DNA from: Escherichia coli
Lineage (GTDB): Bacteria > Pseudomonadota > Gammaproteobacteria > Enterobacterales > Enterobacteriaceae
DNA length: 64,000 nt
Reading direction: 5' to 3' (one strand)
Assembly: GCF_003334385.1 (NCBI RefSeq)
Contig: NZ_QOWN01000023.1
Part shown: positions 4,138 to 24,138 of the stretch, piece by piece
Layout: each line of letters opens with the position of its first letter
Position numbering within the stretch: the first letter of the stretch is position 1
Program-made: the position numbers and the translations under genes
The notes under the pieces: generated by a model
Seen by the model: the letters and a program-made list of their open reading frames with translations, nothing else
Told to the model about the DNA's origin: nothing
The model's database searches: none

Positions 4138-5349
<1,212 letters not shown>

Positions 5350-20942: not shown

Positions 20943-21119
20943 TTTCCGCGTCATGCTTCACGCCGCAGATGCGTTGGCTGCGCTCGTTCACCCCAGTCAC
21001 ATAGTTATCTATGCTCCTGGGGCTTCACTCACTTGCCGCCTTCCTGCAACGCGAATCATTTAGCGGAAAAATCCTGGGGCTGCCAACTGGCGGCCCTTTT
21101 ACAAAGAAGGATAACTAAA

Positions 21120-22403
21120 ATGACAGAAGCGATGAAGATTACCCTCTCTACCCAACCTGCCGACGCGCGCTGGGGAGAAAAAGCAACTTACAGCATTAAT
21201 AATGACGGCATTACCCTGCATTTGAACGGGGCAGACGATCTGGGGCTGATCCAGCGTGCGGCGCGCAAGATTGACGGTCTGGGCATCAAGCATGTTCAGT
21301 TAAGCGGTGAAGGCTGGGATGCGGATCGCTGCTGGGCATTCTGGCAAGGTTACAAAGCCCCGAAAGGCACGCGTAAAGTGGTGTGGCCGGATCTGGACGA
21401 TGCCCAGCGCCAGGAACTGGATAACCGCCTGATGATCATCGACTGGGTGCGTGACACCATCAACGCACCGGCAGAAGAATTGGGACCATCGCAACTGGCA
21501 CAGCGTGCTGTTGATCTGATCAGCAACGTCGCGGGCGATCGTGTGACTTATCGGATCACCAAAGGCGAAGATCTGCGTGAGCAAGGTTATATGGGGCTGC
21601 ACACAGTCGGACGCGGTTCAGAACGTTCTCCGGTATTGCTGGCGCTGGATTACAACCCAACTGGCGATAAAGAAGCGCCAGTGTACGCGTGCCTGGTAGG
21701 TAAAGGTATCACTTTTGACTCCGGCGGCTACAGCATCAAACAGACTGCGTTTATGGACTCGATGAAGTCGGACATGGGCGGCGCGGCAACGGTTACCGGG
21801 GCGCTGGCATTTGCCATTACGCGCGGACTGAACAAGCGCGTGAAGCTGTTCCTCTGCTGTGCGGATAACCTGATTAGCGGCAATGCGTTCAAGCTGGGCG
21901 ATATCATCACCTATCGCAACGGTAAAAAAGTTGAAGTGATGAACACTGATGCCGAAGGGCGTCTGGTGCTTGCCGATGGTCTGATTGATGCCAGTGCGCA
22001 GAAACCGGAAATGATCATTGATGCGGCGACCCTCACCGGGGCGGCGAAAACTGCGCTGGGTAATGATTATCACGCGCTGTTCAGTTTTGACGATGCGCTG
22101 GCCGGTCGCTTGCTGGCGAGTGCCGCGCAGGAGAACGAACCGTTCTGGCGTCTGCCGCTGGCGGAGTTCCACCGCAGCCAGCTGCCGTCTAACTTTGCCG
22201 AACTGAACAATACCGGAAGCGCGGCGTATCCGGCAGGCGCGAGCACGGCGGCGGGCTTCCTGTCGCACTTTGTTGAGAACTATCAGCAAGGCTGGCTGCA
22301 TATCGACTGCTCGGCGACTTACCGTAAAGCGCCGGTTGAACAGTGGTCTGCGGGCGCTACGGGACTTGGTGTGCGCACGATAGCTAATCTGTTAACGGCG
22401 TAA
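21120..22403 (+). CDS. pepB: Aminopeptidase B (M17 leucyl aminopeptidase family)
   Basis: M17 signature NTDAEGRL; 427 aa from [11 protein letters not shown]. Confidence 0.93.
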
Positions 22404-22512
<109 letters not shown>

Positions 22513-22544: not shown

Positions 22545-23321
22545 ATGTCCGAAACAAAAAACGAACTTGAAGACCTGCTGGAAAAAGCAGCAACTGAACC
22601 GGCGCACCGCCCGGCCTTTTTCCGTACTCTACTGGAATCCACCGTCTGGGTGCCTGGTACGGCGGCGCAGGGCGAGGCTGTGGTTGAAGATAGCGCGCTT
22701 GATTTACAGCACTGGGAAAAAGAAGACGGCACCAGCGTCATTCCTTTTTTCACCTCGTTAGAAGCACTTCAACAGGCGGTTGAAGACGAACAGGCATTTG
22801 TCGTAATGCCCGTTCGCACGCTGTTTGAGATGACACTTGGCGAAACGCTCTTCCTTAATGCCAAACTGCCAACCGGTAAAGAATTTATGCCGCGTGAAAT
22901 CAGTTTGTTGATTGGTGAAGAGGGAAATCCGCTGAGCAGCCAGGAAATCCTGGAAGGCGGTGAATCGCTGATATTATCGGAAGTCGCAGAGCCGCCAGCA
23001 CAAATGATTGATTCACTCACCACCTTATTTAAAACCATTAAGCCGGTGAAGCGTGCTTTTATTTGTTCAATTAAAGAGAACGAAGAGGCACAGCCTAATT
23101 TACTTATTGGCATTGAAGCCGATGGTGATATCGAAGAAATTATTCAGGCGACGGGAAGTGTAGCGACCGATACATTACCTGGCGATGAACCAATCGATAT
23201 TTGTCAGGTGAAAAAAGGGGAAAAAGGAATTAGCCACTTTATTACCGAACATATTGCGCCATTCTATGAACGTCGCTGGGGTGGTTTTTTGCGTGACTTT
23301 AAACAGAATCGGATAATCTAA
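22545..23321 (+). CDS. sseB: Enhanced serine sensitivity protein SseB
   Basis: 258 aa from MSETKNELEDLL; gene order pepB-sseB. Confidence 0.88.
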   Translation: MSETKNELEDLLEKAATEPAHRPAFFRTLLESTVWVPGTAAQGEAVVEDSALDLQHWEKEDGTSVIPFFTSLEALQQAVEDEQAFVVMPVRTLFEMTLGETLFLNAKLPTGKEFMPREISLLIGEEGNPLSSQEILEGGESLILSEVAEPPAQMIDSLTTLFKTIKPVKRAFICSIKENEEAQPNLLIGIEADGDIEEIIQATGSVATDTLPGDEPIDICQVKKGEKGISHFITEHIAPFYERRWGGFLRDFKQNRII

Positions 23322-23625
23322 AATATGCCGCCCAAAGGGCGGCATTCGGGCTTACTTGCTGCTCTGAAGGTTGTTAACCACCAGTAAATTGTCGCCGGAG
23401 AGACTCCGGTTATTATTTACCTCGGTTAACAGCGCACCAGAAACAATAAGTACGATACAAAAGCACCGTATCTTCATTGTGCGGTCCATGCGAAGACCGC
23501 ATCACGACAGCACCACTGGCGATATTGCCGCGATAGCAAGCGCTGTGAAACACCTGCATTTACGGCCACGGAACATCCTTTCCTAAAGCCAGCGCCCGTT
23601 TGCGAGACGGCGGAAAGGGCCGCAG
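23318..23625 (-). ncRNA. ryfA: Candidate ~300 nt RNA (RyfA-like), minus strand, carrying small ORFs
   Basis: Minus-strand -10 TATTAT (plus coordinates 23629-23634); GC hairpin 23325-23345 followed on the minus strand by AUUUUAG; span fits the ~300 nt RyfA RNA of the sseA-sseB spacer from memory. Confidence 0.4.
23352..23477 (-). CDS. Candidate small hydrophobic protein (41 aa; 45 aa if started at 23489)
   Basis: MKIRCFCIVLIVSGALLTEVNNNRSLSGDNLLVVNNLQSSK: basic N-terminus plus 15-residue hydrophobic stretch; ends 7 nt before terminator hairpin; no obvious SD; same frame as upstream 24-codon ORF (23502-23576) across a TGA. Confidence 0.3.
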   Translation of the reverse strand: MKIRCFCIVLIVSGALLTEVNNNRSLSGDNLLVVNNLQSSK

Positions 23626-23806
23626 TGGATAATACACTAACAGAACAATAATAACTCTCTTTTGCTTGACAAAAAGAGAGTTACTGGCGAGTATTGTCTC
23701 CGCTGAGACGCGCTTGCATTACTACGGTAATACAACCTGCTGGAAAGGCCGCGAACCGGACCAGCAACAAAAAACCGCCTGATTTTGGCGGTTTTTTGTT
23801 TTTTAA
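23609..23806 (+). repeat. Copy 1 of ~196 bp direct repeat: A/T-stem hairpin containing TTGACA (23666-23671) and a factor-independent terminator (23769-23804); candidate small RNA (RyfB-like)
   Basis: Near-identical core AACTCTCTTTTGCTTGACAAAAAGAGAGTTACTGG and CTGCTGGAAAGGCCGCGAACC shared with copy 2; GC stem plus T-run. Confidence 0.6.
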
Positions 23807-23930
23807 AGGAAAATGAATTTACATGTTTAAGTAATATCTTTTACCGGTTAGAATTTTTAATTTTGAGCAGGATTTGTTTATATTTGTCTGAATTCGGACT
23901 AATAAGCCAGGTTATTTTATTACCGAACAC

Positions 23931-24126
23931 GGCGGAAAGGGCCGGTGTCGATAATACGCTAAATAAACAATAATTACTCTCTTTTGCTTGACAAAAAGAG
24001 AGTTACTGGTGAGTATTGTTTTGCTGTGAAGCACCTGCGTTGCTCATGTAACACAAGTCAACCTGCTGGAAAGGCCGCGAACCAGACTAGCAATAAAAAA
24101 CCGCCAAATTCGGCGGTTTTTTATTG
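23931..24126 (+). repeat. Copy 2 of the same ~196 bp unit (TTGACA 23988-23993; terminator 24095-24123); candidate sibling small RNA (RyfC-like)
   Basis: Offset 322 bp from copy 1; diverged central segment, conserved ends and terminator. Confidence 0.6.
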
Positions 24127-24138
24127 CCTGTAAAATAC

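Follow-up and report, generated by a model that had tools for sequence, protein, structure and literature searches.

Why does the spacer between sseB and sseA in Escherichia coli carry the same block of sequence twice, and what could each copy do? The spacer considered here (positions 23322-24138, 817 bp) lies between the end of sseB (23321) and the end of sseA (24139) in a stretch of 64,000 nt, which we call the window. It is the known E. coli timP(ryfA)/timR small-toxin/antitoxin-RNA locus in the layout of strain K-12. What is new is the presence of two TimR genes at this locus. Among the sampled E. coli genomes there are three matched RyfA-TimR allele pairs, A, B and C. In the window the resident RyfA is allele B, the right-hand repeat (copy 2) is TimR-B, and the left-hand repeat (copy 1) is TimR-A, an expressed but unannotated TimR paralogue with the targeting end of the other allele. 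We read the whole as a type I toxin-antitoxin system, timP/timR, with copy 2 as the matching antitoxin, copy 1 as an allele-A paralogue and a mosaic duplication as its origin, and we put the probability of this reading at about 85%.

The curated record of strain MG1655 carries three features here, ryfA (b4440), timP (b4812, "putative toxic protein TimP") and timR (b4811, "putative small regulatory RNA TimR"), which map exactly to 23623-23320(-), 23477-23352(-) and 24023-24122(+). The spacer is 100% identical to that of E. coli strain SCU-104 and differs from MG1655 at two bases, 23813 and 23876. The region is matched in all of the complete E. coli genomes (5426/5426), and timP is annotated there among the records listed. 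The annotated timR is copy 2, which adjoins sseA and stands 400 nt from the ryfA start, and copy 1 has no annotation in the curated MG1655 record. A first-pass annotation, made from the letters of the stretch, had proposed RyfA together with TimR-like toxin/antitoxin RNAs. This was right in kind, and the MG1655 annotation agrees, but its "RyfC" was misplaced. In K-12, ryfB and ryfC are listed as separate small RNAs (sRNAs), which we take to be shoB/ohsC at another locus.

One toxin mRNA and two TimR RNAs

The minus-strand RNA is RyfA, the timP mRNA. Positions 23320-23623(-) match the Rfam family RF00126 along the whole covariance model (314.9 bits, E 1e-87, model positions 1-296 of 296; gathering score 80 bits), lie between sseB and sseA as RyfA does in Escherichia, and are identical to MG1655 ryfA (b4440) over 304 nt. 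The RNA has an intrinsic terminator at 23325-23345(-), found by a terminator scan as a stem of 9 pairs (7 GC), which is the 3' hairpin of the Rfam model. A 3' end in published K-12 Term-seq data (Adams 2021), at MG1655 2654157(+), corresponds to window position 23321. A -10 box, TATTAT, can be read from the sequence at 23629-23634(-); it precedes the annotated 5' end (23623) by 6-11 nt, and this 5' end sets the timP AUG at +147, compared with +145 in Salmonella. Thus, the minus-strand unit of about 300 nt that the first-pass annotation had delimited by this box and the terminator is present, as is the second TATTAT that it had seen at 23951-23956.

Its statement that the gap holds no conventional gene did not stand. 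The timP coding sequence at 23352-23477(-) has 41 codons (MKIRCFCIVLIVSGALLTEVNNNRSLSGDNLLVVNNLQSSK), is a RefSeq coding sequence in K-12 and other strains, and encodes a protein identical to MG1655 b4812, which matches NCBIfam NF040796 (toxic_TimP) with 86.8 bits over residues 1-40 of 41 (cut-off 45). In Salmonella, ryfA encodes TimP, a Sec-dependent inner-membrane toxin, and toxicity and membrane targeting are known from the Salmonella protein (PMC7667032). By homology, the E. coli TimP is a putative inner-membrane toxin of 41 amino acids.

The direct repeats were correctly described: both copies open with ACGGCGGAAAGGGCCG and end in a GC stem and T run, at an offset of 322-326. Each is made of two parts. 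The first parts (23607-23697 and 23929-24019, 91 nt, offset 322) are 90% identical, the second (23733-23796 and 24059-24122, 64 nt, offset 326) are 84% identical, and a diverged middle of 35/39 nt separates them. The RNA genes within are the TimR paralogue of copy 1 at 23700-23799(+) and the TimR of copy 2 at 24023-24122(+), the latter 100% identical to MG1655 timR b4811. Because Rfam has no TimR family, the lack of a hit to one could not be used to refute the TimR assignment, as had been suggested. A covariance model (R1) built only from 10 TimRs from outside Escherichia matches both copies over its full length (positions 1-99 of 99), with 99.4 bits (E 2e-22) for copy 1 and 77.1 bits (E 5e-17) for copy 2, so that the family search proposed as a check now covers TimR as well as RyfA. 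No further full-length plus-strand match to R1 was found in the 64-kb window, its other matches there being the copy-2 terminator on the reverse strand (31.1 bits) and one of 12.5 bits (E 0.33). According to R1 and the predicted folds, both copies have the TimR scaffold, which consists of a single-stranded 5' seed, a small hairpin, a conserved GCUGG...CCAGC hairpin and a terminator. The terminator hairpin of copy 1 (23766-23800) has 14-nt arms that match at 100% and is symmetric (A run, stem, T run), and copy 2 ends in a GC stem and T run at 24090-24127. Two open reading frames in the repeats, of 40 and 49 aa with TTG starts, were set aside; they are without a Shine-Dalgarno sequence and overlie sRNAs with a structure conserved across genera.

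Both TimR RNAs have 3' ends in the Term-seq data (Adams 2021). That of copy 1, at MG1655 2653679(-) or window 23799, is in three lists with scores of 107,037, 48,011 and 208,460; that of copy 2, at MG1655 2653354(-) or window 24124, is in one list with a score of 34,005. Copy 1 is far above copy 2 in both Term-seq scores and read counts. In addition, copy 1 corresponds to ECS011 (re-annotated IS129), a 71-nt sequenced sRNA of K-12 (Shinhara 2011, PMC3175480). The 71-nt read contig is window 23700-23770 exactly, and the northern probe of that study is copy-1-specific, maps to 23702-23736 in the seed region (copy-1-specific seed CCGCUGAGACGCGCUUGC) and detected bands of about 95 and 100 nt (PMC3175480). 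Taken together, the published K-12 data make copy 1 an abundant RNA of about 100 nt. The strand-specific transcripts that were named as a check on the first-pass annotation are therefore on record, with K-12 3' ends at 23799, 24124 and 23321 and, on the strand that was predicted, TimR RNAs about 100 nt long; for copy 2 the 5' end is that of the MG1655 annotation only. ECS011 was described as "cis-antisense to IS128" with its function unassigned (PMC3175480), and within the literature searched it is not linked to TimR or to ryfA alleles. The supplement of PMC11228461 gives no indication of which K-12 TimR sequence was aligned, and coordinates matching the spacer were not found in the Cappable-seq supplements.

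The A/T hairpin that had been noticed around TTGACA is indeed a palindrome in both copies, but it is not part of the RNAs that the repeats encode. All three RNA 5' ends, mapped or annotated (23623, 23700 and 24023), lie downstream of it, so it is DNA of the shared divergent promoter. In copy 1 the inverted repeat spans 23652-23683, with 12-nt arms (23652-23663 and 23672-23683) that are 100% complementary. The TTGACA at 23666-23671 is the likely -35 of this timR, and GAGTAT at 23689-23694(+), which we read from the sequence 17 nt after TTGACA, is its likely -10; the sequenced RNA begins 6 nt further on, at 23700. The palindrome of copy 2 is at 23976-24005 (also given from 23974), with TTGACA at 23988-23993 and GAGTAT at 24011-24016. 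TTGACA is kept at the same spacing across genera, and nAnnAT boxes equivalent to GAGTAT are present in other genera, whereas the palindrome is found only in the E. coli alleles A and B and not in allele C or other genera. Its centre falls on the -35 region where the divergent promoters overlap (TTGACA / TTGTCA), and it looks like an operator. We know of no factor that binds it.

Pairing of the TimR seed with the timP leader

In Salmonella, TimR is encoded divergently from timP, and an 18-nt stretch of its 5' region pairs with the timP leader and blocks translation, as compensatory mutants and translation assays in vitro have shown (PMC7667032). Stem-loop 4 (SL4) holds the Shine-Dalgarno sequence locked, and translation needs a pseudoknot between SL1 and SL3 that is disrupted by TimR binding (PMC11228461, PMC13000454). 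The TimR site in the Salmonella leader is within SL2 (PMC11228461). We compared both copies with the resident leader, in which an SL2 is likewise predicted by folding. Whole-molecule RNAduplex predictions of RyfA against each copy were uninformative, because both copies gave about -70 kcal/mol with very large interior loops; pairing was judged by ungapped helix scans and windowed duplexes. When RyfA was scanned against the plus-strand sequence that lies beyond its start, one outstanding match was found outside the repeats' own similarity, between RyfA nt 64-83 in SL2 (23541-23560(-)) and 24022-24041 in copy 2. All 20 positions pair (17 Watson-Crick and 3 G-U), beginning at the annotated TimR 5' end, and nt 1-19 of copy 2 pair uninterrupted with RyfA nt 64-82. 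If the mark of a TimR is a complementarity of at least 16 uninterrupted nt from its 5' end to SL2 in the resident timP mRNA, copy 2 qualifies with 19-20 contiguous pairs and copy 1 does not, its longest run with the resident allele being 11. The copy-1 stretch 23701-23720 forms 18 of 20 pairs in register with the resident RyfA, and its mismatches at nt 75 and 78 fall in or next to the SL2 loop. The copy-1 seed has a perfect contiguous match of 17 nt to ryfA allele A (e.g. in strain 442/2, which has a single module), an allele that is absent from this genome.

The same specificity is seen in the duplex energies. Matching pairs reach -43.7 (A-A), -42.6 (B-B) and -37.8 kcal/mol (C-C) in windowed duplexes; off-diagonal pairs lie between -19.7 and -33.4 kcal/mol, with -33.4 for RyfA(B)-TimR(A) and -27.1 for RyfA(A)-TimR(B), and shuffles average about -18. 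For the comparison across genera, a degenerate SL4 pattern scan gave at least 120 loci, mostly in unrelated GC-rich genomes and with no Salmonella among the matches listed, of which we used 16 Enterobacterales loci (Escherichia spp., Citrobacter, Superficieibacter, Yersinia, Rahnella, Erwinia and Pantoea). A single TimR-like gene is present on the opposite strand, 64-82 nt from the ryfA start, in 15/16 of these other loci, each time with a TTGACA -35, a GCUGG...CCAGC hairpin, a terminator and a seed of 10-22 nt complementary to SL2; outside Escherichia these seeds are at least 16 nt long. For comparison, copy 1 is 77 nt and copy 2 is 400 nt from the timP transcription start. When 18 matched pairs of RyfA SL2 and TimR seed (7 genera and the E. 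coli alleles) are aligned, 95.6% of the alignment cells pair, compared with 28-45% when the partner is slid by 1-3 columns, and 11 of the 20 pairs change on both sides. This covariation, together with the published work (PMC7667032, PMC11228461), supports the contact between the TimR 5' seed and leader SL2.

One observation concerns the edge of this target. The Term-seq data include an internal RyfA 3' end at MG1655 2653940(+), window 23538 or RyfA nt 86, in one list with a score of 857. It sits just past the 3' arm of SL2 and could be a processing or cleavage product tied to TimR pairing.

The first-pass annotation had proposed another contact, in which the 3' segment of the repeats, CTGGAAAGGCCGCG, pairs with the 5' end of RyfA. 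In this mechanism CUGGAAAGGCCGCG of the repeat RNAs would bind the extreme RyfA 5' end, GCGGCCCUUUCCGC. The two are complementary over 6+5 bp with a one-base bulge, and the TimR motif is nearly invariant across genera. However, we find no covariation for this pairing across genera. Where the 5' end of RyfA has changed (Rahnella, Pantoea, Yersinia and E. coli allele C), TimR shows no matching change, and in Pantoea and two Rahnella the RyfA change is matched instead in the 3' arm of RyfA's own SL1. Likewise, a change of the motif in Pantoea TimR is matched within TimR's own hairpin; the motif lies inside this predicted and conserved TimR hairpin, and published probing puts TimR on SL2. We regard this contact as very improbable.

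For the SL2 contact we propose the following mechanism. The minus strand yields the 304-nt RyfA as the mRNA for TimP, with its ribosome-binding site presumably locked in SL4 and its translation proceeding via the SL1-SL3 pseudoknot, as in the homologous Salmonella leader. The plus strand yields two sRNAs of about 100 nt that share a promoter type (TTGACA, 17 nt, GAGTAT), a two-hairpin scaffold and a terminator. Copy 2 would pair with SL2 through its first 19-20 nt and block TimP translation. Copy 1, because its 18 of 20 pairs leave two mismatches in or next to the SL2 loop, would be at best a weaker, cross-reacting antitoxin for the allele-B leader.

Several points weigh against this reading. 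Repression was demonstrated in Salmonella, and its assignment to either TimR in E. coli with this layout is carried over from there. In extraintestinal pathogenic E. coli, the timP open reading frame and a timR deletion had little phenotype (PMC8205139, PMC13188913), so the toxin-antitoxin behaviour in E. coli is to be called putative. In principle, read-through from sseB could contribute to the 3' end at 23799 as well. Finally, copy 1 could be the main repressor, because it has 18 of 20 in-register pairs, is much more abundant in the K-12 data and occupies the canonical position. Both TimRs would then work on the resident timP mRNA, with copy 1 repressing through wobble-tolerant pairing and copy 2 as a back-up. 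The RyfA(B)-TimR(A) duplex lies beyond all 1000 shuffles, which fits this alternative, as do the higher Term-seq scores and read counts. Nevertheless, we consider it doubtful. The mismatches at RyfA nt 75 and 78 are placed where pairing should start. In Shigella dysenteriae, RyfB1 lowered RyfA1 only and not RyfA2, which differs in the same variable region (PMC5333039), and mutations in the pairing region (M6) abolished the rescue from toxicity in Salmonella. Furthermore, the SL2 of ryfA-B and the variable region of timR-B occur in nearly equal numbers of the 5426 genomes, 1975 and 2030. We thus keep copy 2 as the probable repressor of TimP in this strain.

A probable mosaic duplication and its spread in E. 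coli

How did the second TimR come to stand so far from its target? The first-pass annotation took copy 2 for a partial duplication. This is correct in that the body of a second ryfA is absent beyond a stub. Copy 2 should not be ranked below copy 1, however: it is annotated as timR b4811 and matches the resident RyfA perfectly, and the diverged paralogue is copy 1. Between the two copies lies an AT-rich spacer (23803-23915), which is found only in arrays with more than one timR. It is followed by a 14-nt remnant of the sseB 3' end (23916-23929(+), TTTATTACCGAACA), identical to sseB 23239-23252, and by the second-ryfA stub (23929-23945(-)), which is covered by the direct repeat and holds only about the first 17 nt of ryfA. 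The -10 of the stub promoter, TATTAT at 23951-23956(-), has the allele-B ryfA promoter sequence, the same as in the complete allele-B module of strain L004. That strain has two modules, and there the spacer (95.5% identical to the one here) is followed by an 87-bp sseB 3' fragment and then by a second complete ryfA/timR module; in the window 14 nt of the sseB fragment are joined directly to the ryfA stub. The ryfA body is 98.6% identical to allele B (left module of L004) and 94% to allele A, whereas the block of promoter and timR in copy 1 has 99.4% identity with allele A (L003) and 85% with allele B. The order is therefore allele-B ryfA, allele-A promoter and timR, spacer, sseB remnant, ryfA stub, and allele-B promoter and timR. 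From this mosaic and the comparison with L004 we infer that the K-12 form arose by tandem duplication of the module, loss of the second ryfA body and recombination between alleles. Gene conversion and deletion, or insertion of an allele-A block, are the routes that we considered, and either order of events is conjectural.

The layout is common. Comparison of the spacer across E. coli, part of another check that had been suggested, gives single-module, two-module and K-12 layouts, and the K-12 deletion junction is present at full length in 1774/5426 complete genomes. The AT-rich spacer occurs in 2242/5426, at 1-2 places each and always on the chromosome, and the places inspected are all in the sseB-sseA spacer. 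The timR-A variable region is found in 4540 genomes. Other layouts are a single A or C module, an A module with an orphan seed D, two full modules, and disrupted forms.

Some of these layouts have features of their own. Loci L003 (1852-1943) and L007 carry a fourth TimR seed type, D (GACGAGAUACACUUGC), after the spacer, under a promoter that differs from the others. Its pairing with each of the sampled ryfA alleles is poor (-14 to -20 kcal/mol), and it is another orphan antitoxin gene. In L006 (2501-4282, E. coli 06-00048), the SL2 of an allele-C ryfA runs straight into the timR-C seed, which has an identical sequence on that strand. This removes both promoters together with the 5' end of ryfA; in addition, ISEcB1 lies inside the timR terminator, so that the module is disrupted, though timP is still annotated. 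The right-hand timR terminator of L004 (2336-2397) has a short internal duplication, TTCGGCGGTTTTTTATTTTCGGCGGTTTTTTATTG, which is further evidence of slippage or recombination at timR terminators.

The mosaic also bears on what copy 1 is. It might be a neutral relic, an orphan antitoxin left after recombination between A and B chromosomes and transcribed, targetless, from its intact promoter. The mosaic breakpoints coincide exactly with a shared 16-mer, the locus is highly polymorphic among the E. coli genomes compared, and the seed-D genes are other orphans, with no matching ryfA in those loci. On the other hand, the copy-1 seed region is 100% identical to that of allele-A strains, without decay, and the K-12 layout is fixed in about one third of complete E. 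coli genomes; both facts are also compatible with recent common ancestry. We see the relic as possible but tentative. Less likely still, the spacer may be a fast-evolving specificity array in which at least three SL2/seed alleles (A, B and C) co-evolve, orphan antitoxins are added (A in the K-12 layout, D in others), and the abundant orphan TimR-A is kept for a function other than silencing the resident toxin. If so, TimR-A (ECS011) may neutralise an incoming allele-A timP after recombination, or may regulate other mRNAs, as is hinted by avian pathogenic E. coli, in which TimR without RyfA is deleterious. The asymmetric pairing, in which TimR-A tolerates RyfA-B by G-U wobbles, would then make TimR-A a broad-range antitoxin. 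Copy 1 may be a cross-repressor of TimP, a relic or a regulator of other targets.

The stub promoter raises the question of IS128. The Rfam family RF00125 matches 23755-23963(-) with 260.3 bits, above its gathering score, and this RNA would start at the stub promoter. A real IS128 sRNA of about 180 nt (from about 23945 to about 23762, minus strand) would end at the back of the copy-1 terminator and act on copy 1 by antisense pairing. The stub keeps the native allele-B ryfA promoter sequence, the copy-1 terminator hairpin is symmetric, and the region folds better than shuffles (z -3.5), although mostly owing to the terminator. However, RF00125 goes back to a computational prediction made from this locus itself; the match thus shows sequence identity and is no independent evidence. 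A strand-specific northern in K-12 was negative and there were zero reads, for which the authors suggested an artefact or condition-specific expression (PMC3175480), and no Term-seq 3' end is listed on the IS128 strand. We therefore regard an IS128 transcript as improbable and doubt that IS128 forms a stable RNA. Both this candidate and C0614 seem to be predictions from the timP/timR module that were put on the wrong strand or shifted in position.

Several other Rfam matches were seen in passing. The TimR homologue of Pantoea latae (L103, 1439-1519) reaches the gathering score of AgrB, the dinQ antitoxin family (40.7 vs 40 bits), and copy 2 has sub-threshold matches to AgrB (29.6 bits) and OhsC (28.8 bits), from which we claim no family membership. 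These matches reflect either a shared scaffold or the cross-matching of short, terminator-rich models. In Yersinia similis (L076, 4340-4837), a TimR-like match at 4526-4622(-) overlaps the first ~70 nt of the ryfA match, the 5' end of which is the reverse complement of the TimR constant hairpin, and Rfam Ysr224 lies just upstream (4361-4467). This locus is rearranged, and Ysr224 may be related to the timP/timR module. Elsewhere in the window, the pepB-sseB gap (22383-22487) has sub-threshold matches to naRNA4 (CssrE) and ES036 (CssrF), and 20944-21068(-), at the left edge of the scanned stretch, has sub-threshold matches to Vibrio AS5 (44.9 bits, gathering 96) and CssrA (26.3 bits), which are probably chance or weak similarity.

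Relation to known systems

The system itself is already known, and what we add is modest but concrete: there are two TimRs, the annotated one is displaced and the one in the canonical position is unannotated. K-12-like strains, about one third of complete E. coli genomes, have two TimR genes, of which the unannotated one, with the mismatched seed, is the more abundant in the K-12 data found. Both copies and the ryfA allele must therefore be considered when a single timR is deleted, when probes are aimed at the shared 3' domain, and when a phenotype in E. coli is ascribed to "TimR". In addition, the ECS011/IS129 candidates gain an identity, as a TimR paralogue.

The closest relative is the timP-timR system of Salmonella and other enterobacteria (Andresen 2020, PMC7667032; PMC11228461; PMC13000454). 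Both have a RyfA-family mRNA that encodes a TimP-family protein, a leader with four stem-loops, and a divergent TimR with a 5' seed of 18-20 nt to SL2. Unlike in Salmonella, there are two TimR genes for one timP here, the matching TimR lies at 400 nt from the timP start, compared with about 70-80 nt there, and the TimR in the canonical position has the seed of another allele. There is also no STM2534-like gene here.

Shigella dysenteriae has tandem modules, ryfA1/ryfB1 and ryfA2/ryfB2, RyfB1 and RyfB2 being the Shigella name for TimR, with the specificity in a 5-nt "variable region" (Fris 2017, PMC5333039). The likeness lies in the tandem duplication at the same chromosomal site, in sibling sRNAs that differ in the part pairing with the RyfA variable region, and in allele-specific regulation (PMC5333039). 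The difference is that the second ryfA body is deleted here, down to a 17-nt stub beside a 14-nt sseB remnant, which leaves one toxin gene and two antitoxin genes. The complete two-module form, as in Shigella, exists in some E. coli, such as L004. Among the K-12 candidates (PMC3175480, RF00125), ECS011 is the copy-1 RNA, and two older predictions, IS128 and C0614, fall across the spacer and the promoter of copy 2.

Divergent antitoxin RNAs with limited pairing to the toxin leader are likewise found in tisB/istR-1, shoB/ohsC, dinQ/agrB and zor/orz, the toxins of which are unrelated to TimP. Tandem duplicates with sequence-specific antitoxins are also known there, as in zorO-orzO and zorP-orzP.

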